Source: Thermoplasmata archaeon
Lineage (GTDB): Archaea > Thermoplasmatota > Thermoplasmata > Thermoplasmatales > Thermoplasmataceae
NCBI GenBank assembly: GCA_049965275.1
Contig: JBMFWM010000001.1
Coordinates: 2,752 to 66,751, forward strand
DNA length: 64,000 nt
Reading direction: 5' to 3'
Both the position numbers and the translations under genes were made by a program. Below the pieces are notes generated by a model. The model saw nothing but the letters and a program-made list of their open reading frames with translations. It was not told the origin of the DNA and did not search any database. Positions 5,184 through 64,000 of this stretch are shown here, in pieces; the first letter of the stretch is position 1; each line of letters begins with the position of its first letter.

Positions 5184-5888
5184 ATGCAGCAAGGTCAAAT
5201 GAACTATGACAGGGCAATTACAGTCTTTTCCCCGGATGGGAGGTTATTTCAGGTTGAGTACGCGAGGGAGGCAGTCAAGAAAGGATCAACAGCACTTGGT
5301 CTCAAGTTTTCAAACGGGGTTGTTCTTATTTCCGACAGAAAGGTAAGGAGCAGGCTTGTAGAGCAGAACTCAGTTGAGAAAATACAGCTGATTGATGACT
5401 ACGTAGCAGCAGTGACATCAGGCCTGGTTGCAGACGCTAGGGTATTGATAGATTTCTCCAGAGTTGCGGCACAGCAGGAAAAAGTAACATATGGGGGCCT
5501 GATAAACATGGAAAATCTTGTCCGCAAAGTGGCTGACCAGATGCAGCAATACACTCAGTACGGCGGAGTCAGACCTTATGGTGTTTCGCTTATATACGCA
5601 GGAGTAGACAGGGTTGGACCCAGACTCTTCGACTGTGATCCAGCTGGAACAATAAACGAATACAAGGCAGTAGCAGTGGGATCAGGAAAGGATCAGGTAG
5701 TCGCATACCTTGAGAAAGAATACAAGGAAGACCTTAAGGAGAAGGAAGCAGTCGCTCTCGGCATTGCAGCCTTGAAGGTTGCACTCGAGGAAGAAGGCGG
5801 CGTGAAATCCCCCGAGATCGCAACAATTACTGTAGGTAACAAGTATTACTTCTACACAAAGGAAGAGACTGCAAAGTTCACTTCCTGA
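5184..5888 (+). CDS. psmA: Proteasome subunit alpha
   Basis: N-terminus [24 protein letters not shown] is the canonical proteasome alpha signature. Length is 234 aa. Confidence 0.95.
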
Positions 5889-6073
5889 GTAAAAAACCAG
5901 TAAAATCTGCATTTAAAATAACTTATGCAACCAACCATGGCCTAGGACGTGGCCATTCAAATGCTTTTTAAACATTTAACCCAAATCGGTGATTTTATCT
6001 CCTCCGAGAAAGGATCAAACTTATTGCATTCAGGTAAAGAATTAAATGTAAAAATTTTATACTCGCTGCAAAG

Positions 6074-6766
6074 ATGGTAAAAGTAGAGGATGCCATAGTC
6101 GCAAAGCTTGAGTCGCACGGGCACCGTTTTGAGATACTGGTTGATCCGGACGCTACAGACCGTATAAAGACCGGGATTATTGACATAGACAAGGATCTCG
6201 CACTTGATCAGGTGTTCAAGGATTCAAGGAAGGGAGAGAAAGCAGGTGAAGAAACCCTTAAGGAAGTATTCGGAACCACAGATATATCACAGGTGGCAAT
6301 TGAGATAGTGAAGCGCGGTGAAATCCACCTTACGACTGAACAAAGAAGGGAAATGCTCGAAAAAAAGAGGAAACAGATAGTCGAAATGATTGCCAGGGAA
6401 GCAATCAACCCACAGATGAACGCGCCTCATCCTCCTGCCAGAATACTTCAGGCAATGGAGGAATCAAAGGTGCATATCGACCCTTTCAAGAGTGCATCTG
6501 ATCAGCTCCAGACTGTCCTGAAAGCGATAAAGCCGCTGATCCCGATACGTATGGAAAGGATCAAAATCGCGGTAAAGCTGGTGGGGGACGCCTACGGGAG
6601 GGTGTATGGAGAACTTGCAAGAAGCGGATATATTGTCAAGGAAGAATGGGACCACTCCGGTGCATGGATTGGAATGCTTGAAATTCCAGCTGGAATGAGG
6701 GGTGATATCCTGGATCTCATCAGCAGGAAAGGCAAGGAAGGCGCAGAAGTCAGGTTGCTAAAATAA
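6074..6766 (+). CDS. SBDS-family ribosome maturation protein
   Basis: The [21 protein letters not shown]-terminus and three-domain length (230 aa) are typical of archaeal SBDS. It sits downstream of psmA, as in the archaeal exosome superoperon. Confidence 0.85.
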
Positions 6767-6768
6767 GT

Positions 6769-7308
6769 TCAGCTGGCTAGCTTGGGATCTATCCAGTAGG
6801 TCATCAGGATATCGTCCACATATTCTCCGTTTATTATGAACTGGGATTTTCTGGCACCTTCCTGGATGAATCCAATTTTTCTATAGGTTTCTATTGCGCT
6901 AACATTGGTTGAGAAGACTTCCAGGTTAACCTTTTTTATTCCGTTCTCCTCGGCCCAGCGCAGTGCCTCCCTTATAAGCTCAGATCCGATCCCCTGATGC
7001 CTGTATCCCTTCATAACTGCTATTCCAAGGTTTGCAGTATGCCTGTTCTTCTTATACACTCCTCTCTGAAGGGTCAGTACTCCTGGAATTTTATCGCCGA
7101 TTGAAGCGACAAGGGTCAGATCATCCGGATTTCGAAGCCTCTCCTGCTCGCCCCGCTCTGTGTACAGATAATATTCGCTGACAAAATAGATGCGCTCGTC
7201 CATAACGCTCTGCATGCACTCTATTATCTTCTTGGCATCTCTTGGTTCTGCCTTTCTTATCAAGAGCCTGTCTGCAGGTGACTCGACATGTTTTCGGATC
7301 AAAGACAA
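6769..7308 (-). CDS. GNAT-family N-acetyltransferase
   Basis: Acetyl-CoA binding motif YRHQGIGSELI (Q/RxxGxG/A) and the overall GNAT pattern. Confidence 0.8.
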   Translation of the reverse strand: MSLIRKHVESPADRLLIRKAEPRDAKKIIECMQSVMDERIYFVSEYYLYTERGEQERLRNPDDLTLVASIGDKIPGVLTLQRGVYKKNRHTANLGIAVMKGYRHQGIGSELIREALRWAEENGIKKVNLEVFSTNVSAIETYRKIGFIQEGARKSQFIINGEYVDDILMTYWIDPKLAS

Positions 7309-7309
7309 T

Positions 7310-7639
7310 TCAGTTCTCTCTCAATACGTTCATCAATCTCTTCAGAACACTTGATATGTCCTTTGATATTTTTTGAACGTTCTCGGCAATCTGTTTATGA
7401 CTTCTCGTAAAGCTTGCAGTCAGCACTGCACCTTCACGGGAAGGCTTTATGACTCCATTTTTTTCAAGTATCCTGAGGGAATACCGAACCTTATGCTCCG
7501 GAAGATTTGTTATTTGGGATAGTTTGATGATTCCAGCGGGCTGCGACTCACGCAGTGCCTCAATTATGGAAATGTGCCTGGCTAGCCTATCCACGTCTTC
7601 GACAAGTTCCCCCAAAATAACATGCTGCTTCTTCTGCAT
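7310..7639 (-). CDS. Winged-helix transcriptional regulator
   Basis: 109 aa. IKLSQITNLPEHKVRYSLRILEKNGVI is a typical wHTH recognition helix plus wing. Confidence 0.6.
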   Translation of the reverse strand: MQKKQHVILGELVEDVDRLARHISIIEALRESQPAGIIKLSQITNLPEHKVRYSLRILEKNGVIKPSREGAVLTASFTRSHKQIAENVQKISKDISSVLKRLMNVLREN

Positions 7640-7700
7640 GTATACCTTAAAGCGTTCTAAAAATAAATAATTGCTTACTAGTTAAGCATATCTGCAGGGT

Positions 7701-7916
7701 TCAAGGATAAATTATCTTACCGTTTTCTGTCACTGAAACATTCTTGCCAATCATTTTCTCTATAGCAGCGACCCTCTGTGAGATATATTCATCAAATTTA
7801 TCGGGTTGATCTGAAACGACCCTAATCTTGACTGCCTGGTACCTCAGCGCTATCTGCAGGCGCAGCTTAAAAGCCTCATCGTAGCCGAGCGATCCAATAT
7901 CGACGGATTTCAACAC
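7701..7916 (-). CDS. Hypothetical small protein (71 aa)
   Basis: ORF only, with no recognisable motif. It is co-oriented with the wHTH gene downstream. Confidence 0.35.
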   Translation of the reverse strand: MLKSVDIGSLGYDEAFKLRLQIALRYQAVKIRVVSDQPDKFDEYISQRVAAIEKMIGKNVSVTENGKIIYP

Positions 7917-8131
7917 TGCATGATGAGATACAAGGTTAAAGCTTTTCCAGCTTCATGTTTGCAGGGCATAGAGAGGCGAAGGAACCCATTCACCGGTGGT
8001 CAAGCAAGATTGCTCCAACCAAGCGATACAGGCAAGCAATTTGTAAATATTCAGTCAGGTCGCAAAGCAATAGGCTAAGGTAACAGCGAAAATGTAAATC
8101 ATTATTTTTGATCTGGCATAACCTGATTGCA

Positions 8132-9571
8132 ATGCGGGTTGAATTCCATAAAGTGGATAATTACAGATACTCTGCATACGATGAGAACAGCATGAATGTT
8201 CCAGCTGAGGTATTTGCATCTGATGCAATGATGGAAGCAGCAAAGCGCGACAGTTCACTGATCCAGCTCCTCAACATCACGGCACTGCCGGGTATTGTCG
8301 GAAGGGCAATTGCGATGCCAGATATCCATCAGGGTTACGGTTTCCCGATTGGTGGAGTTGCATTATTCGACTCTGACGAGGGGCTCGTCTCGCCCGGTGG
8401 AGTCGGATACGACATCAACTGTGGCGTCATACTGATCAGGACTGGGCTTGCCGAGACGGAGGTCTCTCCTTATCTAAAGGATCTTGTTGATTCGCTTTTC
8501 AGGGAAATTCCTGTCGGGTTCAACAAAGCAGGATTACGCAATGTATCTCATAATGATCTGGAGCAAATCTGCCTTTCAGGCGTGCGATGGTCAATTGACA
8601 AGGGGTACATAACCGAGGAGGATTCGCTGAAGATGGAAGACCTGGGGTCATTAGCAGTGGAAAGCACCGCGGCTATATCCGAGAGGGCAAAGGCAAGAGG
8701 GCTGAACCAGTTGCTTTCCATCGGGTCCGGTAACCACTTTGTGGAAATACAGAAGGTGGAGAAAATATTCAATAATTCAGCTGCGTCAAAATTAGGGCTT
8801 TTCGAGGGTGAAGTAATGATTATGGCGCATACTGGTTCACGCGGTCTCGGCCATCAGGTCGCAACTGATTACCTGAAAGCGCTCTCAGAGAGGCCTGATG
8901 GAGTCATTATGCATCCGGAAGACAGCCAGTTGATGTCAGCACACATCAAGTCAAGGATCGCTCATGATTATTTGGAGGCAATGAACGGTGCCGCAAACTT
9001 TGCCTTTGCAAACAGATCACTTATTCTTTGGAAGGTGAGGCAGATTTTTTCCCAGGTTTTCCATATGCCTAAGGATGATCCATCGATTCAGCTGGTATAT
9101 GCCATCTCGCATAACATGGCAAAAATTGAGGATCACATTATTTCCGGCAAACTGCATAAAGTGATCATTCACCGCAAAGGAGCCACCAGGGCATTCTCAA
9201 CTGATAATCCAACATTACAGGGCATATTTAAAGAGACAGGGCAGCCCGTGATAGTACCCGGTGACATGGGAACTGCCTCTTATCTTCTGACCGCAAGCAA
9301 AGGGAACGACGCAATATCATTTGAATCATCTTGCCACGGAGCGGGAAGGACTATGAGCAGACACCAGGCCACATCCAGATTCAGCTACACAGAAGTGTCT
9401 GGCGAACTAGAATCAATAGGGATCAAGGTCAGAGCTGCAACTAGAAAAGGCTTGGTTGAGGAAGCTCCCGGTAGTTACAAGGACATAGAAAGCGTGATAG
9501 AAGTCGTCTCAAGATCTGGAATATCCACGCCTACCTGCAGGCTCAAGCCGCTTGGAGTGATAAAGGGATGA
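8132..9571 (+). CDS. rtcB: RNA-splicing ligase RtcB
   Basis: Motifs PDIHQGYGFPIGGV, GGVGYDINCG, GSGNHF and SSCHGAGR. The ATG at 8132 (MRVEFHK...) is preferred over the TTG at 8108. Confidence 0.95.
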   Translation: MRVEFHKVDNYRYSAYDENSMNVPAEVFASDAMMEAAKRDSSLIQLLNITALPGIVGRAIAMPDIHQGYGFPIGGVALFDSDEGLVSPGGVGYDINCGVILIRTGLAETEVSPYLKDLVDSLFREIPVGFNKAGLRNVSHNDLEQICLSGVRWSIDKGYITEEDSLKMEDLGSLAVESTAAISERAKARGLNQLLSIGSGNHFVEIQKVEKIFNNSAASKLGLFEGEVMIMAHTGSRGLGHQVATDYLKALSERPDGVIMHPEDSQLMSAHIKSRIAHDYLEAMNGAANFAFANRSLILWKVRQIFSQVFHMPKDDPSIQLVYAISHNMAKIEDHIISGKLHKVIIHRKGATRAFSTDNPTLQGIFKETGQPVIVPGDMGTASYLLTASKGNDAISFESSCHGAGRTMSRHQATSRFSYTEVSGELESIGIKVRAATRKGLVEEAPGSYKDIESVIEVVSRSGISTPTCRLKPLGVIKG

Positions 9572-41535: not shown

Positions 41536-43254
41536 TCATGCGTCTCTGAGCAATCCAGTTAAATCTTCCGCAAACTGCACTGCGTCTCCTACATATCCAT
41601 AATCTGCGTACTTGAATATTTGTGCCTGCGGATCTTTGTTGACGGCGATAACAGTTCCGGCATATCGTATCCCGACGACATGATTATCATGGCCAGATAA
41701 ACCGAGAGCTATATATAACCTGGGAGAAATTGAGTAACCTGTAAGTCCGATCTGCTGCTGTCTAGGAATCCAGTTAAGATCAACTATAGGCCTAGACCCT
41801 CCAATAGAAGCACTCAGGACGCTAGCAAGCTCGGCAACATGGGCGACATTTTCCTTCTTAACCAAGCCCTTCCCTATTCCGATGACTGTTTTAGCATCCC
41901 TGAGGGGGCGGAACTCTGATGATATATATTCTCTTGATAATGCCACTTCCTGGAACGAGGATGACAGGTCAACTTCCTCATAAGCAATATTGTGTGTTCC
42001 TTTCGACAGTGGGAATATTCCCTGCCTAACGGATGCCATCCCCGGACTTGATTTTGAAGTGATCCTTGCAACCATGCCTCCACCAAACGCAGGTTTGTAC
42101 TGTAATAGCTTTCCATTCTGGACGTCAAGGTTAATGCAGTCCGCTGTAAGACCAAGCGACAGGGATGCTGCAACGTAGGAAGAAATTTCCCTGCCTTCGA
42201 CAGATGAGGAGAATACGACGTAACTTGGTTTCATTTCCCTTATATATCTAGTAAGATATTCGCTGAACCCCTTAATCGAAGCATTGTTCAACTTTATGTA
42301 CCTGTTACACCTCATGCCCTGTATCTTGCTTTTATCGTCATTTCCCAAAGCAACAACAGAAAAAGAATGCTTCAGGCCAAGATCCGAAAGTTTCCCGGCG
42401 ATCTCGAATGCGCTCCTGAGATCACTGTATGAAATAACGACAGCATGATTGGCACAATCCGGTGAAGGTACATCACCTAAAGCCAAGTCCGGATCGTTTG
42501 ACTCTTTAATAATCGTCTTTCTAACAAGTGCAGCAATCTCCTTTATGTCAGGAAGCATTTTTACAGATCTGAAACTGTCGATCCTCTCCGTAGATTCGAC
42601 GACTGTCGGAGAATCAGACCCTCTCACTGAAGTGCCTGTATCTGAAGCTGACCACTTTTCAATCCTGGAACTCATATCCGGAACACTAGGACTCACAAAT
42701 CTTGCGCGATTGATCTTCTCGCTGACAGAAATGAGGAAAGGGAGGGTCATCCTGTAAGTTGCGAAGCCGGTTTCAAGTTCCTGCTCCACTATTGCAGCCA
42801 TGTCATCACTTAATTCTAGTTTAGAGACAGAGGTCTTGAAAGGATATCCTGACAACACTGCAACTTCAGGAGGGATCTGTGATGTTTCCCCGTCCAGGGA
42901 ATATTTTCCAAGAAGAACAATATCAGGTTTCAGTTTGAGTACCACTGAGGATAGGACCTTGGCAGTCACCCAGGTATCTGCTCCAGCAAAAGCTGGATCG
43001 GAGATAAGGATAGCCCTGTCCGCACCCATCCTGAGGGATGAGTTCAATATTTCCGATGCCGAGGGCGGTCCCATCGTCACTACGGTGACCTGCCCTCCAT
43101 GCTTCTCTTTCTGCCTGATTCCCTCTTCGACAGCACGTTTGTCAAAAGGATTAATGATGAGTGGAACCTGATCACGTTTTATCCTGTTTGTTGAAGGATC
43201 AAACTGTATCTTGCTTATCTCAGGGATCTGCTTGACAAAGACAAGTATGTTCAT
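41536..43254 (-). CDS. Electron transfer flavoprotein, fused beta (N-terminal) and alpha (C-terminal) subunits
   Basis: The N-terminal half (VFVKQIPE...NPFDKRAVEEG...GADRAILISD) is EtfB-like. The C-terminal half (GGSRPIVDLNWIPRQQQIGLTGYSISPRLYIALGLSGHDNHVVG...AVNKD) is EtfA-like. Both lie in one 572-aa ORF. Confidence 0.85.
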   Translation of the reverse strand: MNILVFVKQIPEISKIQFDPSTNRIKRDQVPLIINPFDKRAVEEGIRQKEKHGGQVTVVTMGPPSASEILNSSLRMGADRAILISDPAFAGADTWVTAKVLSSVVLKLKPDIVLLGKYSLDGETSQIPPEVAVLSGYPFKTSVSKLELSDDMAAIVEQELETGFATYRMTLPFLISVSEKINRARFVSPSVPDMSSRIEKWSASDTGTSVRGSDSPTVVESTERIDSFRSVKMLPDIKEIAALVRKTIIKESNDPDLALGDVPSPDCANHAVVISYSDLRSAFEIAGKLSDLGLKHSFSVVALGNDDKSKIQGMRCNRYIKLNNASIKGFSEYLTRYIREMKPSYVVFSSSVEGREISSYVAASLSLGLTADCINLDVQNGKLLQYKPAFGGGMVARITSKSSPGMASVRQGIFPLSKGTHNIAYEEVDLSSSFQEVALSREYISSEFRPLRDAKTVIGIGKGLVKKENVAHVAELASVLSASIGGSRPIVDLNWIPRQQQIGLTGYSISPRLYIALGLSGHDNHVVGIRYAGTVIAVNKDPQAQIFKYADYGYVGDAVQFAEDLTGLLRDA

Positions 43255-43592
43255 GCAACTTCAACGAGGATTTCCCCATTCTCCACCTTTGCCTTGTAAG
43301 ATTTTAGTGGAGAAATATCGCCAGATCCCTCTGGAGGGCTGACAACAGAGCCGTTGGAAGGCTCAAACGTCGCAAAATGGTTCGGGCATATGAGCTTGCC
43401 ATCATCCACGAAACCTTCTGAAAGATCATAATCTTCATGTGTGCAATAACAGGATGTAGCGTAGAAGTTGTTCTTGATCCTGATTATGAGGACCTCCAAA
43501 TCCCCAACCTTCGCTTTCATCAGATCGCCATCCTTCATGGAAGTTTCCTTGCCAACCTTAAACCATGCCATACTTCCAGATTGGATAATCAA
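43251..43592 (-). CDS. Rieske [2Fe-2S] ferredoxin-like protein
   Basis: CTH ... CPNH (CxH / CxxH) motifs with typical ~20-residue spacing in 113 aa. The stop overlaps the ETF start (ATGA-type 4-nt overlap). Confidence 0.8.
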   Translation of the reverse strand: MIIQSGSMAWFKVGKETSMKDGDLMKAKVGDLEVLIIRIKNNFYATSCYCTHEDYDLSEGFVDDGKLICPNHFATFEPSNGSVVSPPEGSGDISPLKSYKAKVENGEILVEVA

Positions 43593-45325: not shown

Positions 45326-46513
45326 ATGAATCCCTCCTCTATTGGAATTATGTCTTCAGGGTTCAATACAAGGGCAGTGCAGGATGGGGAATTGAGAATC
45401 AAGGAATTTGGCAATATGACTACACCTATATTTGAGAACTCGACATTTGCAAATCCCAACGAGTCTCAGAATCCCGCTACCGATCATACGAGGGGAAAAC
45501 CCTACATGTATACAAGATGGGGTAATCCGACGCTGCAGTCCCTCGAGAAGAAATACGCTTCTCTTGACCAGGTGGATGAAGCTCTCTCCTTTTCATCCGG
45601 AATGGCTGCAATAACTTCCAGCCTCCTGGCACTGCTCAAGAAGGGCGATCACCTGCTGTCCGTAAATGAGCTTTACGGTGAAACTTTCCTCTTCTTTACC
45701 AAGACCCTTCCTGATATGGGAATCAATGTCAGCTTTATCTCAACCGATGAACTGAATAGTGAAGATATAGATCTTAGGAAATATAAGGCAGTATATACTG
45801 AATCAATAGTGAATCCGACTCTTGGAGTGTGCGACCTTGATCATATTGGATCGATAGCTGCTGAAGCAGGATCGCCTCTGCTGGTAGATTCGACGTTTGC
45901 ATCGCCATATAATCAGAATCCTTCGAAATTCCATGCATCAGTGACTCTTCACAGCGGAACCAAATATATAGGTGGCCATGCAGACATAATACTGGGACTT
46001 GCAGGTTTCAGCAAGGACTATCTCGAGAGGATCTGGCTCTCAAGGAAAACCTTCGGCGGTATACCCGATCCATTGCAGGCATTCCTTGCCCTCAGAGGAA
46101 TAAAGACGCTTGGTCTCAGAATGAAAGTCCAGAATGAAAATGCACTCGCCCTTGCAAGATTCCTTGAGCAGCACAAAAGCGTAAGGAAGGTATTTTATCC
46201 CGGACTTGAGAGTTTCAGGTATCATGAAATTGCAAAACGTAACCTGAAGGGATACGGTGGCATGATATCGTTTGAGCTTAAAGATGGGGTTCCGGCAGCT
46301 AGAAAGATGATGAAGAACCTGAAAATATGCTCATCTGCACCGAGCCTCGGAGGTATAGAATCGCTTATCACACTTCCGATCGATACAACGCACGGATCAT
46401 TGACTCCTGCTGAAAGGGCTAAAATGGGCATTCCGGAAGGATTGATCAGGTTCTCTGTCGGAATAGAGGATTCAGAAGATCTCATTGAGGACTTCCAGAA
46501 AGCCTTGTCATGA
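45326..46513 (+). CDS. Cys/Met-metabolism PLP enzyme (cystathionine gamma-synthase/lyase or O-acylhomoserine sulfhydrylase family)
   Basis: The HSGTKYIGGHAD PLP-lysine motif and C-terminal IRFSVGIED are hallmarks of the family. Specificity is not resolvable by eye. Confidence 0.85.
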   Translation: MNPSSIGIMSSGFNTRAVQDGELRIKEFGNMTTPIFENSTFANPNESQNPATDHTRGKPYMYTRWGNPTLQSLEKKYASLDQVDEALSFSSGMAAITSSLLALLKKGDHLLSVNELYGETFLFFTKTLPDMGINVSFISTDELNSEDIDLRKYKAVYTESIVNPTLGVCDLDHIGSIAAEAGSPLLVDSTFASPYNQNPSKFHASVTLHSGTKYIGGHADIILGLAGFSKDYLERIWLSRKTFGGIPDPLQAFLALRGIKTLGLRMKVQNENALALARFLEQHKSVRKVFYPGLESFRYHEIAKRNLKGYGGMISFELKDGVPAARKMMKNLKICSSAPSLGGIESLITLPIDTTHGSLTPAERAKMGIPEGLIRFSVGIEDSEDLIEDFQKALS

Positions 46514-48132: not shown

Positions 48133-49119
48133 CTAAGAGCTGATCGAATAAAGTTTTCTCCGTAGATCCGTCAGATCCCTCGTTTCCCTGATGAGTCCCT
48201 GCCTTATCAGCGATGATAAAGAATTCTGGGTTGTTCTGCGATTCAGGCCAGTAAGCTTCATGATCCTATCCTGATCTATCGTTCCATGAGAGCTTATGAT
48301 AAAGTATACAAATCTCGGAGAAGGTCCCCCAGTGATCTCTGGCTGTACAGGATGTATCCCGAACGTATCCCCCCTAAGGCTCTGGCGCTGCGTTTCTAGT
48401 GCGGCAACACTGGAGGGCGCAATGTTTCCAAGGTTGACATCTTTGCCGAGTCTAATTATCAGGCTTGTCTGCTGGACTTCCTGCGGTGCTTCGAACATTA
48501 TTCTCTTCAAGCCGAATTCAGAAACTATTGCATCCACCCAGTCCCATTTTATATTACCAGATTCGTCATAAATTGCAACACCTTTGCCGGATTCACGCCC
48601 TTCCACAATCACCATGTCTATATCCATGTCCAGTGCTGCACGGATCCTGTCAAGTGAAGCATTCAAAGTTAGCTGGTTCCTAGAATCCTTCTTCCCGACC
48701 TCAATGTGAACCCTCATTCCGAGGGATCTTGCAAGGCCCACCATTGACTTCTTCTCTGCTCTTGATATTTCTATTACTCCCTCACTTATCTCCAAAGTGC
48801 CGAACCCTTCTGCAGCAAGCTTTCTTATGCAGTCTTGCTGCTTTCCCTTCGTAATGCAATATTCAAGCAGCGTGCCACCATTAGAAACGCTGACTCCCAT
48901 GGATTTCCATCGATCGACCCACTTTCTAACGCTTCCAGAGTCCATGATGAATGGAATGCCCCATCCTATCTTTGCGACGTCAATGTACTGTGCGACGGCT
49001 TCTGCCTCCACTCCAGGAAACTTGGAAATTCTATCAAGAACCATGGTTATTCCTTCATTATGCGGCTTTGGTCTTGATGCATCAATAATTTCTTGCAGAA
49101 ATTTAGGCATACTTCGCAA
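48133..49119 (-). CDS. comA: Phosphosulfolactate synthase (ComA family) fused to a C-terminal winged-helix domain
   Basis: KPHNEGITMVLD, IDVAKIGWG, GGTLLEY, LEISEGVI, EVGKKD, VEGRESG, FEAPQEVQQ, VNLGNI and LETQRQSLRGDTFG track the ComA family over ~255 aa. The last ~70 aa (IMKLTGLNRRTTQNSLSSLIRQGLIRE) look like a MarR-type wHTH. Confidence 0.8.
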   Translation of the reverse strand: MRSMPKFLQEIIDASRPKPHNEGITMVLDRISKFPGVEAEAVAQYIDVAKIGWGIPFIMDSGSVRKWVDRWKSMGVSVSNGGTLLEYCITKGKQQDCIRKLAAEGFGTLEISEGVIEISRAEKKSMVGLARSLGMRVHIEVGKKDSRNQLTLNASLDRIRAALDMDIDMVIVEGRESGKGVAIYDESGNIKWDWVDAIVSEFGLKRIMFEAPQEVQQTSLIIRLGKDVNLGNIAPSSVAALETQRQSLRGDTFGIHPVQPEITGGPSPRFVYFIISSHGTIDQDRIMKLTGLNRRTTQNSLSSLIRQGLIRETRDLTDLRRKLYSISS

Positions 49120-49240: not shown

Positions 49241-49978
49241 ATGGAACAAGTCGATAATTTTCCAGATGAAACAGTTGGTGCCGCTGAGATAGTCAGGTGG
49301 GTTGCAAACACATACGGGAGAAGCGCTCTTTTTGCATGCAGCTTCAGTGCAGAGGATATGGTCTTACTTCACATGATTGTGTCTTGCAGGAATGAAGGAA
49401 TAGAGATTCCCGAGATAATAACACTGGATACCGGCAGGCTTCATGAGGAAACGTATGAAGTCATGCAGTCAGCAAGGGAAAAATACGGCATACAAATTAA
49501 GGCATTGCATCCCGATAGCTTTGCCCTGAGTGAATTGGTGACTGCGTACGGCCCGAACCTTTTCTACAAATCAGTTGATTTGAGGCAGAAATGCTGTAAT
49601 GTGAGGAAAACTGTTCCGCTCAACAATGCACTTGAAAACAAGCTTGCATGGATAACCGGTCTCCGCAGGGAACAGTCTCCAGGGAGATCACAGGTAAAGA
49701 AAATATCAAAAGACGACGCAAGGAATGGCCTCATGAAGATAAACCCGCTTTCTGACTGGAGCGGTGAAGAAGTTTGGAACTACATCCGGAAATATCAGAT
49801 ACCATACAACCGGTTGCACGATAAGGGGTTCCCAAGCATAGGCTGTGCACCTTGCACACATGCTGTCATGCCAGGTGAAGACATAAGGGCTGGAAGATGG
49901 TGGTGGGAAGACGGCAAGAAGGAATGCGGCATACATGAAGCTTCTCAGGATCAAAGAAACATTATCTCTGGGAGGTAA
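49241..49978 (+). CDS. cysH: Adenylylsulfate (APS)/PAPS reductase, Fe-S (APS-reductase) type
   Basis: CSFSAEDMVL and C-terminal KKECGIH catalytic motifs, plus the Cys signature QKCCNV ... GCAPCT (CC...CxxC) associated with [4Fe-4S] APS reductases. Confidence 0.85.
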   Translation: MEQVDNFPDETVGAAEIVRWVANTYGRSALFACSFSAEDMVLLHMIVSCRNEGIEIPEIITLDTGRLHEETYEVMQSAREKYGIQIKALHPDSFALSELVTAYGPNLFYKSVDLRQKCCNVRKTVPLNNALENKLAWITGLRREQSPGRSQVKKISKDDARNGLMKINPLSDWSGEEVWNYIRKYQIPYNRLHDKGFPSIGCAPCTHAVMPGEDIRAGRWWWEDGKKECGIHEASQDQRNIISGR

Positions 49979-49983
49979 AACCC

Positions 49984-51123
49984 ATGTTGTCTGCTCCTCA
50001 TGGTGGAAACCTGATTTCAATCCCGGAGCTGAATCCTGATGAAGCATCCATGCTTGACGGCGGGATAAGAGTCAGGATACATGATGATATGAGATCAACC
50101 ATAAGGTTGATCTCCCGCGGTGTATACAGCCCATTAAAAGGCTTCAACAATAGTGTCGATCTTCACTCTATTCTCAAGGATCAGAGGCTTTCAAATGGCA
50201 CGATCTGGTCAATGCCAATACTGCTTCCGGTCAGTGAAAGCATTTATTCTTCCCTGTCTGAAGGCGATGAAGCTCTTCTTTCAGACAGCCTGGGGACAGT
50301 TTCGACCATGTTGATTTCGGACAAATTCAAGATAGACTTAAATGATACATGCAGATTGATATTCGGTACTGACGATCCACAGCATCCTGGGGTGAACAGA
50401 TTCCTTAACAATGGCAATCATTTCGTTGGTGGCGATCTGAACAGCGTGTTTGAGTATATTCTTCCTTTCCACGAAAGGGTAATGTACCCTAAGGAGACCA
50501 GGAAGTATTTTGAGCAAATGGGATGGAAAGACGTGGTAGCATTCCAGACCAGAAATATTCCTCACCTTGGACATGAATTCATGCATCTGAAGGCACTCGA
50601 ATCACATGATGGATTGTTCATAAATCCCGTGATAGGAAGAAAGAAGAGCGGTGACTTCCGTGATGAGGCCATAATAGCAGCGTATGACGCAATGTTAAAG
50701 CATCACTATCCGGAAGGAAGGGTGATCATGTCTCCAATAAATTATGAAATGCAGTATGCCGGTCCGCGGGAAACTTTACATCATGCAATAATGAGGAAGA
50801 ATTTTGGAGCGTCAAGTTTTATCGTCGGAAGGGATCATGCTGGAGTCGGAAACTTTTATGGACCTTTAGACGCACAGAGAAACTGTGACTCTTTTGAAGA
50901 TCTCGGAATAAACATACTTAAGTTTGAGGAAGCGTCTTACTGCAGGAAGTGCAATAAAGTGTCGTTTATAAGCGATTGTAACCATGACCAAGGAGACAGA
51001 TTGAAGTTTAGTGGAACTGAAGTAAGAAAAATGATGTTATCCGGGTCAGCAATAGAGAATATAAGTGTCCGGGAGGAAGTTCTTAATTCAGTTAGAAAAA
51101 TAAATCCGATGTTTCAGGACTGA
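49984..51123 (+). CDS. sat: Sulfate adenylyltransferase (ATP sulfurylase)
   Basis: FQTRNIPHLGHEF and VGRDHAGVG motifs. There is no fused APS kinase domain. Confidence 0.9.
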   Translation: MLSAPHGGNLISIPELNPDEASMLDGGIRVRIHDDMRSTIRLISRGVYSPLKGFNNSVDLHSILKDQRLSNGTIWSMPILLPVSESIYSSLSEGDEALLSDSLGTVSTMLISDKFKIDLNDTCRLIFGTDDPQHPGVNRFLNNGNHFVGGDLNSVFEYILPFHERVMYPKETRKYFEQMGWKDVVAFQTRNIPHLGHEFMHLKALESHDGLFINPVIGRKKSGDFRDEAIIAAYDAMLKHHYPEGRVIMSPINYEMQYAGPRETLHHAIMRKNFGASSFIVGRDHAGVGNFYGPLDAQRNCDSFEDLGINILKFEEASYCRKCNKVSFISDCNHDQGDRLKFSGTEVRKMMLSGSAIENISVREEVLNSVRKINPMFQD

Positions 51124-55676: not shown

Positions 55677-56066
55677 TCAATGCAATCGTCTTCTAAGTCT
55701 ATCAAACAGAAACTGAGTTGTGATGCCTGTCAGTACAATAAATAACAGTGCATAGAATATGACTGCGAATTCGAGAACAGAAACGATTGAAGCATCTTGA
55801 AGTAAGGCTAAAAGTAAAAGGGCCGCTGATACAGAAAAACCCAAGATAGCAGCAGTTTTTGCTGCTTGGGATCCAAGCTTTCTTATTCTGGCATCGTTCA
55901 CCATTCTCGATTTATTTGGAAAAGCTAAATCAAGCATTTTCTTATAATACTCCAAGAGACTTTCAGGCACTCTTCCTCCATTCGAATTCAGAAAATACTT
56001 GAAGAGCTGTCCCTTAAACGCGTAGCTAAGAGTATGAAGCTGGTAAGTGATCTGGATCCGTAACAT
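55677..56066 (-). CDS. Hypothetical membrane protein (possibly the remnant of a gene disrupted by IS insertion)
   Basis: ORF with two C-terminal TM helices. Its 5' end abuts or overlaps the truncated IS21-like transposase fragment. Confidence 0.3.
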   Translation of the reverse strand: MLRIQITYQLHTLSYAFKGQLFKYFLNSNGGRVPESLLEYYKKMLDLAFPNKSRMVNDARIRKLGSQAAKTAAILGFSVSAALLLLALLQDASIVSVLEFAVIFYALLFIVLTGITTQFLFDRLRRRLH

Positions 56067-56322
56067 ACCTTGTTCTTCTTGCCGTACTTTGGAGGCTTCT
56101 TTGCCTTCAGGTATTTCCTAACTGTGGGCCTGCTTATCCCCATCTCCTTTGCAATGTCGCTCACAGACATTCCACTGTCACGTTTTTCGCTAATCATGTA
56201 CCACGCCTCCGCTTCGAACAGTTGAATCACCACTTCCATAATGGAAAGTGGAAAGAATTAACCGCCTATTTTGGAAAGTTCTATTCCGCCTTTTTTTGGA
56301 AAAAATTCAACCGGCGTTGACA
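56066..56322 (-). mobile_element. IS21-family remnant: terminal repeat region plus the first ~60 codons of an IstA-like transposase (HTH only)
   Basis: ISEKRDSGMSVSDIAKEMGISRPTVRKYLKAKKPPKYG is an IstA-like N-terminal HTH that then loses similarity. Upstream, the element end reads 5'-TGTCAACGCCGG... (minus strand, from 56322). It carries two ~25-bp direct sub-repeats (CGCC-Tn-GGAAA-..TTC..A..CCG) at 56262-56290 and 56287-56316, as in multi-repeat IS21 ends. Confidence 0.55.
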
Positions 56323-58355: not shown

Positions 58356-59153
58356 TTAGAGATGTAAAACCACAGAATAGTTCTGATACATGATGTAGAT
58401 GGCAACTACAATCACTATTACTGCAAATATCTGGGTCAGCCTTCTTTTTGGTACCTTACCGGCAAGTCTTGCACCAAACCACCCGCCAAATATTCCTCCT
58501 ATGATGAAAAGTGCTGAGATGATCAGGTTCAGATCTCCGCTTATTGCATATCTAGCAGCAGTTATTACACCAAAGGTTCCAACAGACAAGAGAGATGTGC
58601 CCACAGCCTGGAGTATATTTAGTCCCCCTCCGAAAAGCAGCCCGGGAACTATGAGAAATCCCCCACCTATTCCAAAATAGCCTGAAGCGAATCCCACAGT
58701 CAGCCCAGCTAGGATCAATATTATCAATGATCTCGAAGAATTTACTATCTTTCTCTCGACTTGCGAAATGTCGATACATTTTCGCTTGAGCATGTAAATC
58801 GCGATTCCAATCATTAAGAAACTGAAGAAAAACAGGAGGTCATTACCCGGAGTAAGGAGCCCAAGTTCTGAACCTGCCAGAACACCTACTATTCCCGGCA
58901 AAGTGAATTCAATGCCAACCTTATAGTTGACATGTTTCTTCAGCGTGTGCGGGATTAGATTCAAGTATGCATTTATGCCTACTGCCAGTGCAGTGGTTCC
59001 AATAACAATGTGTGGATGATCGAATCCCACAAAATATATCAGTAATGGGATGGCTAGTATTGAACCTCCACCACCAATCAGTCCCAGTGAAAACCCAACA
59101 AGTATGCCGGAAATTATTGAAAGAATGATCTGTGTTTCTGTTAAGACAAACAT
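58356..59153 (-). CDS. TauE/SafE (TSUP) family sulfite/organosulfonate exporter
   Basis: Two-fold repeated 4-TM architecture with LIGGGGSILAIPLL and GIGGGFLIVPGL motifs. Confidence 0.8.
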   Translation of the reverse strand: MFVLTETQIILSIISGILVGFSLGLIGGGGSILAIPLLIYFVGFDHPHIVIGTTALAVGINAYLNLIPHTLKKHVNYKVGIEFTLPGIVGVLAGSELGLLTPGNDLLFFFSFLMIGIAIYMLKRKCIDISQVERKIVNSSRSLIILILAGLTVGFASGYFGIGGGFLIVPGLLFGGGLNILQAVGTSLLSVGTFGVITAARYAISGDLNLIISALFIIGGIFGGWFGARLAGKVPKRRLTQIFAVIVIVVAIYIMYQNYSVVLHL

Positions 59154-59159
59154 AAGAAC

Positions 59160-59507
59160 TTAGAAAGTTATTACAGAATACCCATCTTGAACTCTGGAAT
59201 CAACTTCGACTCCACCATAAACTGATTCCAGCCCAGGAAATATATCATCCTCTGTAAGTCCTTCGCCTGACATGCTCACCTTGCATATCTTCAAGGGTAT
59301 ACCTTCATTCCTGAGAATGTTAATCTGATCTAGGAACTGCGGAGAGCTCTTCTGATCTTTATTTGCAGCTTGCACTCCTCTTCCAAGGAACAGGAATTCA
59401 ACATTAGCCTTTGCATTCTTGACTGCATTGAATGCAAAACTGAATGCAACCATCTCAGTGTTAATGTTTTCCTTTCCTGTAATCAGCATAACCAGAATTT
59501 TTGCCAT
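59160..59507 (-). CDS. DsrE/DsrF-like sulfur-relay protein
   Basis: 115 aa. MAKILVMLITGKEN...VEFLFLGRGV fits a Rossmann-like DsrE pattern, with a single Cys in PLKICKVS. Confidence 0.6.
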   Translation of the reverse strand: MAKILVMLITGKENINTEMVAFSFAFNAVKNAKANVEFLFLGRGVQAANKDQKSSPQFLDQINILRNEGIPLKICKVSMSGEGLTEDDIFPGLESVYGGVEVDSRVQDGYSVITF

Positions 59508-59562
59508 CTTAAATCATCTCTACACTTGAGTACTATATTTCAAATTCTAGATAAAGTTTGTA

Positions 59563-59802
59563 TTATTCCTCAGTACCATCGTTTGAATATCCAGGATATT
59601 TTGTTCTATACCACACGGTGGTTAGAAGTAGCATAACTATTAAAACAAATGCAGTCGCAGAAACTGAAGACGGGCTTGGATCATATCCATTATATGAGCC
59701 GACGGTTAGCGCTGCTACTATAACAAGCAGAGTTGTCATTGCAATTATAAACGCTTTCACTCCTTTCTCGCTTTTTCTCTCTTCTTTATTGTTGTTATTC
59801 AT
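59563..59802 (-). CDS. Small two-TM membrane protein
   Basis: 79 aa with a charged N-terminus and two hydrophobic helices. Its start codon directly abuts the yeeE-like stop codon. Confidence 0.5.
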   Translation of the reverse strand: MNNNNKEERKSEKGVKAFIIAMTTLLVIVAALTVGSYNGYDPSPSSVSATAFVLIVMLLLTTVWYRTKYPGYSNDGTEE

Positions 59803-61032
59803 TCAATTTACCCCCTTTGACTTACCATATAGTATCCTGCCGACTATCAGAAGACTGATCGCAACCACCACAAAAAATTCAATGCTGCTTGCCGCCATTT
59901 GAAGATCTCCACTTAGAATGTGACCAGAAGCACATCCATCTGCCATTCGTGCCCCGAAGAGGACGAGGAAAGAACCGGAAAAAACCCCAACTGCTCTTTT
60001 CAGCTCATTTGGTCCGAACCTCTTCTTCCAGGTTCTCGGTACCCAGTAATTGAACGATTGAAATCTCCTGGAAACAAATATTGATACCAGAAAAGCTCCG
60101 AGAAGGGTTCCAATATCACTAAACGGTTCCCATCCTACTGTAGCAAATACAAGTTTACTGTAATTGTATGATGGTAGCCATAGATATCCAACCATCCAGC
60201 TGTATGTTGTCGATTCTCCAAATATTTGATGTAAGAACATTTCTAGTACAACGATAAGGCCAATAAACGCTCCCACAAATGTGAGCATCCACTTAAGGTT
60301 ATTATTTGGCGCCCAGTGTTCATTAGCATTCCGCGCTAGCTTATCTCTTGAACCTATTGGCAAGGCACTCCCCTCAATCAATGTCTCGGTGGCATCCTTG
60401 TGCATGGCCAGTTCTGGAGGAGGCATTTTATAATCAGAATGGGTTCCGATGTAAACACAGCTTTTGCCGCCCTTGTATCTTGGAAGGAAATAAGCCACTC
60501 CCAACATCAATGCCAGCCAGGCTATTGAAATCAGAAAACCAACAAATAAATTCGTGCCAACTTTGCCACCGAGATAAAGCTCACCATAATTATCAGTGTT
60601 CACTAGCCACTGACCTGCCGGTGTTTGATACAGGATAGTCCAGGCAGCTGCGCCCAGAAGACCTCCGGCAACGGCATACACTGCTTCCCTACGCCCTTCT
60701 CCCAATGCCATCCACTCGGTTCCGGGGACATATCCTGATAAAGCTACCCCTGCACCGAATATAACTGCACCAAGTGCAATCCCGATAACATAGAAAGGCT
60801 TTATTCCAAAATGGAAGCTTACGCCCAGTGCTGCTAGACCGTAAAGCGCAACAGCACCCACCCCTATTGCAATGGCTATACAGTTTATAAACAGCCTGTC
60901 TTCCCACTTTGAAAGTTTGAGAAGTATATCGGAATTAGAAATACCCCATAACTCTGCGAAGCCACCAATTGCAGCTCCAATGAATATACCTATCCACAAT
61001 GCTGCTGTGTATGATATTGTCATATGTTCCAA
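59803..61032 (-). CDS. YeeE/YedE-family sulfur (thiosulfate) transporter, two-domain form
   Basis: Duplicated Sulf_transp-like halves. The C-terminal half keeps GARMADGCASGH, while the N-terminal half has GAGVALSGYVPGTEW at the equivalent place. Confidence 0.75.
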   Translation of the reverse strand: MEHMTISYTAALWIGIFIGAAIGGFAELWGISNSDILLKLSKWEDRLFINCIAIAIGVGAVALYGLAALGVSFHFGIKPFYVIGIALGAVIFGAGVALSGYVPGTEWMALGEGRREAVYAVAGGLLGAAAWTILYQTPAGQWLVNTDNYGELYLGGKVGTNLFVGFLISIAWLALMLGVAYFLPRYKGGKSCVYIGTHSDYKMPPPELAMHKDATETLIEGSALPIGSRDKLARNANEHWAPNNNLKWMLTFVGAFIGLIVVLEMFLHQIFGESTTYSWMVGYLWLPSYNYSKLVFATVGWEPFSDIGTLLGAFLVSIFVSRRFQSFNYWVPRTWKKRFGPNELKRAVGVFSGSFLVLFGARMADGCASGHILSGDLQMAASSIEFFVVVAISLLIVGRILYGKSKGVN

Positions 61033-61139
61033 AGAACTATGAGATATCTGCTTATTAATATAATTATTCTATGCATATTATTGGCATTTTTTGTGCAAAC
61101 AGAAAGAAAAATTTAAGAATTGTTTAAGGTTGTGAATAA

Positions 61140-61754
61140 ATGATCGGGGAATACGCCATTTCGCTTTTTGACCACGAGTGCCTTCCATTGATAAATATAA
61201 TCTCAGCGAAAGGTACAGAAGTAGATAAGTTGTTCATTCTTTACCCTATGACTAGAAAAGTAGAAGAAGTGTTATATGATTTTTCAATGCAATCCGGCAT
61301 TAAATTGGAACTTGTACCAATTCATGACATCAATAACTTTTATGAAGTATACATAACGCTTGAAAAGATCTGTGAAAATAATGGATTTCCATCCTGGGTA
61401 AATATAGCAAGTGGGTCTGGAATGGCACTTTCGGCCCTCACACTTCATGCTTACTTGAAGGATGCTCCGCTTGTCATGTTTGATAAAGAAAAAGATACAA
61501 TAGTAAAAACTGATGTAAATAAATTAAAAAAAATTAAGATTTACAAAAACCGCTATTTTGAGGTTATTACTTTAATTTCTAAAAAGAACCAAACTAACTT
61601 AGGACTTGCCAGTCATTTCAAACTTTCAGTATCTTCCATGTCAAGAAGACTTAAGCACTTGGAAATGTTTGATATAGTAACAAGGAGAGGCCTAGGAAGG
61701 GTAAACTTCCCCTTTGAATACGAATTGACAGAATTTGGAAAAAGGCTCCTTTGA
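61140..61754 (+). CDS. Csa3-like CARF + winged-helix transcriptional regulator
   Basis: The N-terminal ~130 aa show a Rossmann-like pattern (YAISLFDHE..., DKLFILYP, VNIASGSGMALS) that parallels Csa3 CARF motifs as I remember them. The C-terminus is a wHTH (NQTNLGLASHFKLSVSSMSRRLKHLEMFDIV). Confidence 0.55.
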   Translation: MIGEYAISLFDHECLPLINIISAKGTEVDKLFILYPMTRKVEEVLYDFSMQSGIKLELVPIHDINNFYEVYITLEKICENNGFPSWVNIASGSGMALSALTLHAYLKDAPLVMFDKEKDTIVKTDVNKLKKIKIYKNRYFEVITLISKKNQTNLGLASHFKLSVSSMSRRLKHLEMFDIVTRRGLGRVNFPFEYELTEFGKRLL

Positions 61755-63024: not shown

Positions 63025-64000
63025 CTAATTAACGCTCTCTATTCCCAGGATCTTCATGGCCTTGATGCCACGGTCATCCTGCGATGTTACCACCTTCCTT
63101 ACATTGCTGTTTCTAACAAGGAACGTGATCCTTATGGTTTTCAGCACATCGATGCTCGAAGCAAGAGAAGTTATGTCACTGATCCTGTTGTATATCAGTG
63201 CAAGGAAGAGATACGCAATGTGGGAGAAGAGCATGTGAACCTTTATCTTCTGGGGGGTCCAGTGATATTCCGGTGACATCAGATCATGCATGCTTATTGT
63301 TCTGAAGCAGTGCTCCACCCTGTTCCTTCTTCTGTACAGATCTATTATTTCCTCACCTGGGAGGTCAGGGATGCTTGTGAATAGTGCAGTCTTCCCAAGC
63401 ATTTCCAGCCTTGAATGCAATCTGTTTCTGTCTATCGAAACACCGGGCAGCAGAATTGTCTCCTGCAGGTGCATGGATTCCAGGTACATTCTCGCCCTGT
63501 CCATGGAATCCGAATCGCCGGATTCCACTGTGCTCCTCACCTTACCATACGCTTTCCTGAACATCTTCATGAATGCAATGATTCTTTTCCTCTCAAGCTT
63601 TGAGGAATGATATATGATGATCCGGTGATCAATGCCATAAACAACCTTCCCTGTCTCCACAGATGAATCCTTTTCCACTGGAATTGCTGCGAGATCCCTG
63701 TGATCTGACAGCAGAAGAGCACCTATGTATTTCCTCTTCCTGATATACTGAATATTCTCCCTGGAATTGTATCCCCTGTCAAATATCAGTATGGACGATT
63801 CCGGAACCGCATCGACCATCGCTCTGAATGTCCTGGAATCATGCATATTTCCAGGGTGGGAATCCCCGTAGAACGGTATGTAATCCTCATTGGCTTCTAT
63901 GTAATACGACATCTGGTTCAGATCGTATCTGTGTGCCTTGTTGTGACCCTTCCTGACCATATCATTCTCTTTCATGTAAGTGTAGAAATTGGATCCGTCC
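63025..64000 (-). mobile_element. IS4/IS1634-type DDE transposase gene, N-terminus off-window
   Basis: ILIFDRGYNSRENI (second Asp region) and a C-terminal ...RNRVEHCFR... (E/K region) are present. The frame is open beyond 63975 to the window edge. Confidence 0.7.

Follow-up and report, generated by a model that had tools for sequence, protein, structure and literature searches.

In a stretch of 64,000 nt from a Thermoplasmata archaeon (contig JBMFWM010000001.1, positions 2,752–66,751 of the forward strand; this whole stretch is called the window below), four minus-strand genes and one divergent gene are best explained as a conserved membrane module for sulfur trafficking in acidophilic Thermoplasmatales, made up of two separable two-gene units and a regulator. 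The first unit would comprise a YeeE-family channel from a cysteine-poor clade (59803–61032, minus strand, 409 aa as called in the list of open reading frames (ORFs)) and its own small subunit with two transmembrane segments, the mini protein (59563–59802, minus strand, 79 aa). The second would comprise a DsrE-like carrier with a single cysteine (59160–59507, minus strand, 115 aa), whose gene lies 6 nt upstream of the gene for a TauE/TSUP permease (58356–59153, minus strand, 265 aa). A Csa3-like regulator with a CARF domain and a winged helix-turn-helix (61140–61754, plus strand, 204 aa, divergent from yeeE) would act from the promoter region shared with yeeE (61033–61139). The analysis shows the gene content of the module, the folds of its proteins, a conserved cysteine and the conserved linkage of its genes.

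From these features we infer substrates, transport direction and physical contacts as follows. YeeE and the mini protein would admit a sulfane-carrying anion (thiosulfate or, in acid, tetrathionate or polysulfide), and Cys75 of the probably trimeric DsrE-like protein (TGC codon at 59283–59285, minus strand; the putative active-site cysteine) would hold the sulfur as persulfide or thiosulfonate, as YeeD does for TsuA. Sulfite, the oxidised remainder, would exit via TauE, and the sulfane sulfur would be handed to assimilation or energy metabolism. A probability of about 0.4 was assigned to these steps taken together, from anion import through capture of the sulfur to efflux of sulfite. It was favoured because each family acts in its described role, because it mirrors thiosulfate splitting by YeeE and YeeD, and because it fits the data on induction by elemental sulfur (S0) in Sulfolobaceae (PMC11323534). 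YeeD is essential for uptake by YeeE and splits thiosulfate into a Cys-persulfide and sulfite (PMC11073785, PMC11582611). In Sulfolobaceae a YeeE-type gene, which may be that of the S. ohwakuensis homologue, was induced 211-fold and 4-fold by S0, and the model given for these organisms includes sulfite export and thiosulfate import via YeeE (PMC11323534). The literature labels YeeE of Acidiplasma and Sulfolobaceae merely as 'thiosulfate uptake'.

Gene order and its conservation

The ORF list and the sequence confirmed four minus-strand ORFs with gaps of 0, 55 and 6 nt, as given in an original prediction made from the sequence: the yeeE stop codon abuts the mini start codon (TGAATG), mini and dsrE are separated by an AT-rich spacer of 55 nt (59508–59562, minus strand), and the junction from dsrE to tauE reads TAA, 6 nt, ATG. 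Its family labels were upheld by Pfam, with matches to Sulf_transp (PF04143, 61.3 bits, cutoff 27), DsrE (PF02635, 39.3 bits, cutoff 22.7) and TauE (PF01925, 168 bits, cutoff 32.6, profile positions 2–236 of 237); the mini protein was without any Pfam family match. The divergent regulator gene, absent from that description, belongs to the unit. Translation of yeeE probably starts at the ATG at 61023, giving 406 aa, because this ATG is kept in the aligned upstream regions of relatives and the TTG is not, and because the closest YeeE homologue is 406 aa long.

Related loci were gathered through the DsrE gene by a profile scan with the DsrE alignment (40 loci, one genome per GTDB species, nearly all with a Thermoplasmat- label), and their gene content was tallied by tblastn with the window proteins. 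The close homologues were all from Thermoplasmatales of acidic sites. The tauE gene lay directly downstream of dsrE in 36 of 39 judgeable copies, with a gap of about 5–32 nt in 35 of the 36 adjacent loci (the figure for locus L008 comes from a partial match). A YeeE-family gene was adjacent to dsrE in 24 of 37; clade A YeeE (>60% identity) was found with mini in co-directional order at 10 loci and in divergent orientation at two, and clade B YeeE (37–41% identity) without mini at 12. The exact layout of the window was present at seven loci (L005, L006, L007, L010, L011, L018 and L035). Thermoplasma acidophilum and Oxyplasma carry only DsrE–TauE at the locus, and L028 and L029 carry YeeE–mini–DsrE without TauE, the next gene in L029 encoding a DNA methyltransferase. 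Synteny was thereby confirmed across Thermoplasmatales loci, and the four-gene arrangement is not due to chance, because it recurs in many species. Since the tallied layouts differ between loci, the system is modular: dsrE is partnered by YeeE (with or without mini), by TauE or by both, and DsrE–TauE is the tightest pair. The 55-nt spacer may contain an internal promoter for dsrE–tauE, because this pair stands free in many relatives and is divergent from yeeE–mini in L040 and L042.

Single loci gave further observations. L018 holds a clade-B YeeE–DsrE–TauE set (2–2299) and a clade-A YeeE–mini–DsrE–TauE set (5500–8146) about 3 kb apart, which suggests that the paralogous modules differ in substrates or regulation. 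Upstream of dsrE, a remnant of the YeeE C-terminus is present in L009 (6757–6867, 65% identity over 37 aa) and a mini-like remnant in L012 (6738–6917, 35% over 60 aa); both may be traces of gene loss. L023 (JBMFGW010000124.1), where, as in two other loci, dsrE is not followed by tauE, is labelled Phycisphaerae bacterium and is probably a mis-binned Thermoplasmatales contig, its DsrE-like protein being 72% and its P-type ATPase 49% identical to those of the window.

Outside the Thermoplasmatales, Mycobacterium botniense (L048, 5001–10781) carries YeeE–mini–YgaP_TM–TauE–DsrE, followed by a flavoprotein resembling sulfide:quinone oxidoreductase (SQR). Its YgaP_TM protein is YgaP-like with two transmembrane segments, and its DsrE is 40% identical to that of the window, with both the C(K/E)VS context and the C-terminal TF kept. 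In Sulfobacillus thermosulfidooxidans (L047, 5001–8103) a NIR_SIR sulfite reductase gene and a siroheme-synthase-like gene lie just upstream of YeeE–mini. The flavoprotein adjoining YeeE–mini in Sulfobacillus and M. botniense passed the NCBIfam dihydrolipoyl dehydrogenase model. A metallo-β-lactamase-fold gene after YeeE–mini in Picrophilus was considered as a persulfide dioxygenase and rejected, as it scores as RNase Z-like.

The prominence of DsrE–TauE, the most conserved pair and found alone in Thermoplasma, Oxyplasma and others, bears on the main rival explanation, detoxification of reactive sulfur and sulfite. In strong acid, SO2/HSO3− and H2S would enter the near-neutral cytoplasm by diffusion and become trapped. 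The DsrE cysteine would buffer or carry sulfane or S-sulfonate sulfur, TauE (perhaps with YeeE/mini) would expel sulfite, thiosulfate or sulfane species, and DsrE–TauE would be the core, with YeeE as an optional second conduit. This explanation is in keeping with the concentration of the DsrE subfamily and the YeeE clade in acidophiles (Thermoplasmatales, Sulfolobales, Sulfobacillus and Methylacidiphilum), and with the SQR-like and dihydrolipoyl-dehydrogenase-like flavoproteins that adjoin the module of M. botniense. There is precedent in the cst operon of Staphylococcus aureus and the BigR operons of Xylella and Agrobacterium, in which a TauE-type permease and sulfur-transfer proteins stand under a dedicated persulfide-sensing repressor of CsoR or ArsR type; these operons combine tauE with the sulfide-detoxifying enzymes SQR, persulfide dioxygenase and rhodanese, and those of BigR also include yeeE-like genes. 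None of these enzymes and neither type of repressor is part of the window module, and the 64-kb window as a whole holds no SQR, persulfide dioxygenase or rhodanese. The SQR-linked DsrE4 group has been proposed to act in detoxification of reactive sulfur (PMC4175335, PMC11094781). Against the explanation, every characterised YeeE-family member imports sulfur or selenium (PMC11582611), and the induction of Sulfolobaceae YeeE by S0 was read as uptake by its authors (PMC11323534). Detoxification was judged possible but rather doubtful as the role of the module.

The channel clade, its small companion and the DsrE-like protein

The YeeE-like protein has nine predicted transmembrane helices and a central soluble insertion of ~60 aa. 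Its AlphaFold2 model (predicted local distance difference test (pLDDT) 81.7, predicted template modelling score 0.85) had the YeeE structures of Spirochaeta thermophila (StYeeE; 8k1r/6leo) as sole significant fold matches in the PDB (Foldseek, template modelling score 0.61–0.72); at the level of the model, the YeeE fold of the window protein is confirmed. A single-sequence phmmer search of the PDB with the window YeeE returned nothing relevant, and only the clade profile reached StYeeE. At 47–65% identity the clade includes proteins from Ferroplasma, Picrophilus, Sulfolobales, Sulfobacillus, Sulfoacidibacillus, several Mycobacterium and Athalassotoga; those of Sulfolobaceae, including S. ohwakuensis, are 50–55% identical to the window YeeE.

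Cysteine equivalences were taken from the clade profile aligned to StYeeE. Cys293 of StYeeE corresponds to C367 of the window protein, which is conserved in the clade and lies in a retained C-terminal motif of the GxxxxGGCxxGH type; the view that the GARMADGCASGH motif is kept in the C-terminal half only thus held in this alignment. Cys22 corresponds to Ser32 (clade variants GISN, GIAN and GIGN, i.e. Ser, Ala or Gly) and Cys91 to Val102 (clade variants SGY(V/F/L)PG). The clade keeps other cysteines, C51 and C192, and the motifs LHQIFGESTT and GWEPFSD. Clade-B YeeE shares the cysteine pattern and motifs of clade A and has no mini gene; it differs by an N-terminal extension of ~45 aa with one more hydrophobic helix (L013, L015, L019, L020, L024, L027, L030, L033, L036, L043 and L044) and by an insertion of ~20 aa in the C-terminal half. 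The clade-B N-terminal helix was considered as a fused mini protein and rejected, the matches to the hidden Markov model (HMM) not being significant (E 0.19–7); the extension could stand in for part of the mini subunit.

The mini protein contains two hydrophobic segments by hydropathy (residues ~17–36 and 47–65) and no cysteine. Its gene follows yeeE in 12 Thermoplasmatales loci, and an ORF of 75–88 aa follows yeeE in Picrophilus, M. sedula, S. ohwakuensis, Sulfobacillus and M. botniense, where it overlaps yeeE or begins a few nt past the yeeE stop. The HMM of the Thermoplasmatales proteins matched the S. ohwakuensis (E 2e-8) and M. sedula (E 7e-5) proteins, and the chain of homology continued from M. 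sedula to Sulfobacillus (E 3e-10) and from Sulfobacillus to M. botniense (E 3e-12); the next other ORF in these searches had E 0.05 (target set of 6247 ORFs). These sequence matches show that the mini protein accompanies this YeeE clade in both Archaea and Bacteria as a conserved small partner, probably a subunit. The original prediction had called it conserved-looking, which proved right; it is not specific to this operon, for it accompanies the YeeE clade in Sulfolobales, Sulfobacillus and Mycobacterium.

The lone cysteine reported for the DsrE-like protein was confirmed as C75. It is present in 23 of 25 close homologues and forms the sole invariant column in an alignment of 20 members at 23–62% identity; the protein is thus not a generic DsrE fold without a conserved cysteine, since C75 is invariant down to 23% identity. 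C75 aligns with the family cysteine of PDB 3mc3 (DsrE3A), 2pd2 (ST0148) and 1l1s (MTH1491), i.e. it occupies the canonical position. The best PDB relatives are DsrE3A (3mc3, top sequence match) and ST0148 (2pd2). The Cys-X7-Cys of DsrE3A is absent, residue 83 being Gly, and no genes for lipoamide dehydrogenase, sHdr or TusA, to which DsrE3A is linked, were found in the 64-kb window. A profile search of 1.84 billion representative proteins yielded a small subfamily of 49 clusters at E<=1e-3, with named members from Ferroplasma, Cuniculiplasma, Acidianus, Sulfolobaceae, Methylacidiphilum, Fervidicoccus and a Firmicute, mostly acidophilic lineages. The DsrE-like protein is predicted to carry sulfur in the cytoplasm and to act as hub of the module, because it is found with TauE alone, with YeeE–mini alone, or with both. 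In Thermoplasmatota with sHdr II, a DsrE-type protein is reported as the only sulfur transferase (PMC11094781).

The absence of a TusA-like gene, noted in the original prediction, holds for the window and the loci scanned: no TusA/YeeD/YedF-like ORF was found in the 64-kb window (phmmer, CPxP scan, and Pfam on CPxP-bearing ORFs) and no TusA-like ORF in 48 loci, the phmmer queries being E. coli sequences, which limits sensitivity. The accompanying proposal that DsrE stands in for TusA as partner of YeeE received mixed support. The YeeE–mini–DsrE loci without TauE indicate that the DsrE protein can pair with YeeE alone; dsrE is, however, tied more tightly to tauE.

Several observations weigh against the favoured mechanism. 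No equivalent of Cys22 or Cys91 is present in any of the 26 clade members or in the clade-B paralogues, and the YeeE-like protein scored 31.4 bits on the NCBIfam TsuA equivalog against a cutoff of 400, which it did not pass. No yeeE gene is adjacent in 13 of 37 loci, so that dsrE is more faithful to tauE than to yeeE; YeeE–mini stands without DsrE/TauE neighbours in Picrophilus, M. sedula and S. ohwakuensis, and the DsrE-like genes of Methylacidiphilum and Acidianus have no transporter neighbour. TauE is a putative sulfite exporter, the family name going back to genetic inference in other organisms, and no TSUP protein is known to have a biochemically proven substrate or direction. DsrE3A, the nearest relative that has been characterised, reacts only with tetrathionate and not with thiosulfate (PMC4175335), and the acidity of these habitats makes thiosulfate unstable (PMC11323534). 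TsuA and SoxT proteins (330–350 aa) have three conserved, essential cysteines, each of which is required in SoxT1B (PMC11582611). With two of these three missing in the clade, thiosulfate as the YeeE substrate is an extrapolation and not secure, and the original assignment of this substrate is weakened by the cysteine pattern and by the preference of DsrE3A for tetrathionate. Given the missing cysteines, the specificity of DsrE3A and the lability of thiosulfate in acid, a substrate such as tetrathionate or polysulfide is at least as likely a substrate as thiosulfate.

A substrate other than sulfur, with the module handling selenium, tellurium or a metal, was judged very improbable. In Methanococcus, selenium transport involves a YedE-like protein (cited in PMC11582611); carriers that act through thiols, and the flavoprotein disulfide reductases found as neighbours, could also handle selenium, tellurium or metals, and the flavoproteins beside YeeE–mini in Sulfobacillus and M. 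botniense score 245–258 bits on MerA. This is below the MerA cutoff and they were rejected as MerA, the model that they pass being that of dihydrolipoyl dehydrogenase; moreover, neither selD nor any other selenium gene was seen in the window, and all three recognisable families of the module are sulfur-linked.

Regulator, promoter region and flanking genes

The regulator gave only weak MarR/HxlR/ArsR helix-turn-helix matches (Pfam, NCBIfam) and no Pfam CARF match; its sequence is 100% identical to that of a protein from a metagenome-assembled genome labelled 'Thermoplasmata archaeon'. Its AlphaFold2 model (pLDDT 81) had as top Foldseek matches Csa3 (6wxq/2wte) and the CARF domains of Can2, Cam1 and Csm6 (E 3e-7 to 1e-5), with an N-terminal CARF-type Rossmann-like domain and a C-terminal winged helix. 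In length (~204–212 aa) and two-domain architecture by fold search it resembles Csa3 (2WTE, 6WXQ), from which it differs in sharing 16% identity and in its consistent pairing with a sulfur transporter operon instead of CRISPR genes; neither cas genes nor CRISPR-like repeats (repeated 18-mers) were found in the 64-kb window. One cysteine, C78, is invariant in the homologue alignment. Homologues occupy the same divergent position at five clade-A and nine clade-B YeeE loci, and none was detected upstream of the stand-alone DsrE–TauE pairs examined, save a short C-terminal remnant in L031. A Csa3-like CARF regulator appears to have been recruited to a non-CRISPR sulfur operon, which is unusual.

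When the intergenic regions of the window, L005, L007, L010 and L011 were aligned, a conserved TGCA-N17-TGCA element, a candidate operator, was found at 61072–61096; a TATA-like box lies at about 61053–61066, roughly 30 nt upstream of the yeeE ATG. In L006, from a close relative, the regulator is present as two fragments (3–220 and 1974–2207), split by an insertion sequence (IS) with a transposase at 928–1827 that is 59% identical to the transposase at 63025–63975 of the window; L006 is a natural knock-out of the regulator beside an intact YeeE–mini–DsrE–TauE operon.

The CARF domain enters a more elaborate idea, a 'sulfite shuttle' for insoluble elemental sulfur, which we regard as unlikely. 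Sulfite would leave via TauE and, outside the cell, attack S8 to give thiosulfate or polythionates, these would return via YeeE/mini, and Cys75 would strip off the sulfane sulfur and regenerate sulfite, so that on balance zero-valent sulfur would be imported. The CARF regulator would turn the cycle on and off by sensing a non-CRISPR nucleotide ligand, for which adenosine 5′-phosphosulfate (APS), 3′-phosphoadenosine 5′-phosphosulfate (PAPS) or adenosine 3′,5′-bisphosphate (pAp) is one possibility. If true, the shuttle would give a genetic basis to the Sulfolobaceae uptake model (PMC11323534) and extend CARF signalling to metabolism.

Sulfate-assimilation genes lie 7–13 kb from the operon, among them those for a thioredoxin-type APS reductase (49241–49978) and an ATP sulfurylase (49984–51123). 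Nearby are genes for a ComA-like, sulfite-using phosphosulfolactate synthase fused to a C-terminal helix-turn-helix (48133–49119, minus strand, 328 aa), a fusion that could be a sulfite-responsive regulator, and for a Cys/Met pyridoxal phosphate enzyme (45326–46513). This neighbourhood speaks for purely assimilatory uptake of sulfate, sulfite or thiosulfate through both permeases for cysteine synthesis, with DsrE as the first cytoplasmic acceptor, as do the position of Sulfobacillus YeeE–mini just downstream of the sulfite reductase and siroheme-synthase-like genes and the assimilatory TsuA/TsuB system (PMC11073785). However, the linkage to sulfate assimilation was not seen within ±7 kb in related loci, and the two gene sets are separated by genes for a P-type ATPase and an amino-acid permease and by IS remnants. 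The named TSUP members TauE and SafE are described as exporters (Pfam description), and the DsrE–TauE pair also occurs in organotrophs growing on complex substrates, e.g. Oxyplasma (PMC11349054). No sulfite reductase gene was found in the 64-kb window. A purely assimilatory role was given a low probability.

The remainder of the window consists mostly of housekeeping genes. The G+C content of the 58–62 kb segment is 0.39–0.40, compared with about 0.45 in the rest of the window, and an HTH_7 transposase-like fragment (55988–56239) and a DDE transposase (63025–63975) flank the module; the low G+C content and the flanking transposase sequences would fit lateral mobility of the module and its patchy occurrence across domains. 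At 41536–43592 (minus strand) a 572-aa protein with two electron transfer flavoprotein (ETF) domain matches and an ETF alpha FAD-binding domain, resembling a beta-alpha fusion, is followed by a 113-aa Rieske protein, an uncommon pairing.

Relation to described systems and implications

The component families are well known, and public records annotate the proteins accordingly. Literature searches turned up no description of a YeeE–mini–DsrE–TauE module, of the small subunit or of a Csa3-like regulator of a sulfur operon, in agreement with the original view that this wiring is not part of described systems. TsuA–TsuB (YeeE–YeeD of E. coli and Spirochaeta thermophila; PDB 6LEO, 8K1R) shares the membrane fold, the Pfam family and a small soluble single-cysteine protein encoded beside the channel, and the chemistry of YeeD served as template for the proposed mechanism (PMC11073785). 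The window YeeE differs by being 17% identical and about 405 aa long rather than 330–350 aa, with the ~60-aa insertion; the module adds a two-transmembrane subunit, a TSUP permease and a Csa3-like regulator, and its soluble partner has the DsrE fold, not the TusA fold.

With the DsrE3A–TusA relay (Metallosphaera cuprina and other Sulfolobales, PDB 3MC3) the module shares the DsrE fold, an acidophilic archaeal setting and a carrier that takes an oxidised sulfur group onto a cysteine (PMC4175335). The window protein has 115 aa, compared with 134 residues in the 3MC3 chain, a single cysteine and no TusA partner, and it is linked to permeases instead of sHdr or lipoamide dehydrogenase. Acidophiles also have the small, stand-alone DsrE-type proteins of the DsrE4 group (prototype Mcup_1724, downstream of SQR); the M. 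botniense DsrE homologue is encoded directly upstream of the SQR-like flavoprotein, whereas the window has no SQR. SoxT1A/SoxT1B and PmpAB are further sulfur importers of the YeeE family, likewise channels encoded with cytoplasmic sulfur transferases, and a small cysteine-free membrane protein, Hden_0678, adjoins soxT1A (PMC11582611). In the SoxT proteins, by contrast, all three cysteines are kept and essential, the partners are rhodanese, TusA and DsrE3C, and regulation is by SoxR/sHdrR of ArsR type.

For acidophilic archaea, the uptake of inorganic sulfur and the fate of sulfite have repeatedly been stated to be unknown (PMC4175335, PMC5461723, PMC11323534), and the module is a good candidate for a system by which they transport inorganic sulfur through the membrane. 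Under one regulator the locus links a YeeE from the clade to which the Sulfolobaceae proteins also belong, a putative sulfite exporter, a one-cysteine carrier and a previously unnoticed small membrane subunit, and with four or five genes it forms a compact set that is directly testable. Judged from the alignments, the three-cysteine relay thought to be essential for YeeE-type transport would be dispensable in a widespread clade. A Csa3-like CARF regulator appears to serve a non-CRISPR operon here, and a protein of the DsrE fold rather than the TusA fold may be the cytoplasmic partner of YeeE.

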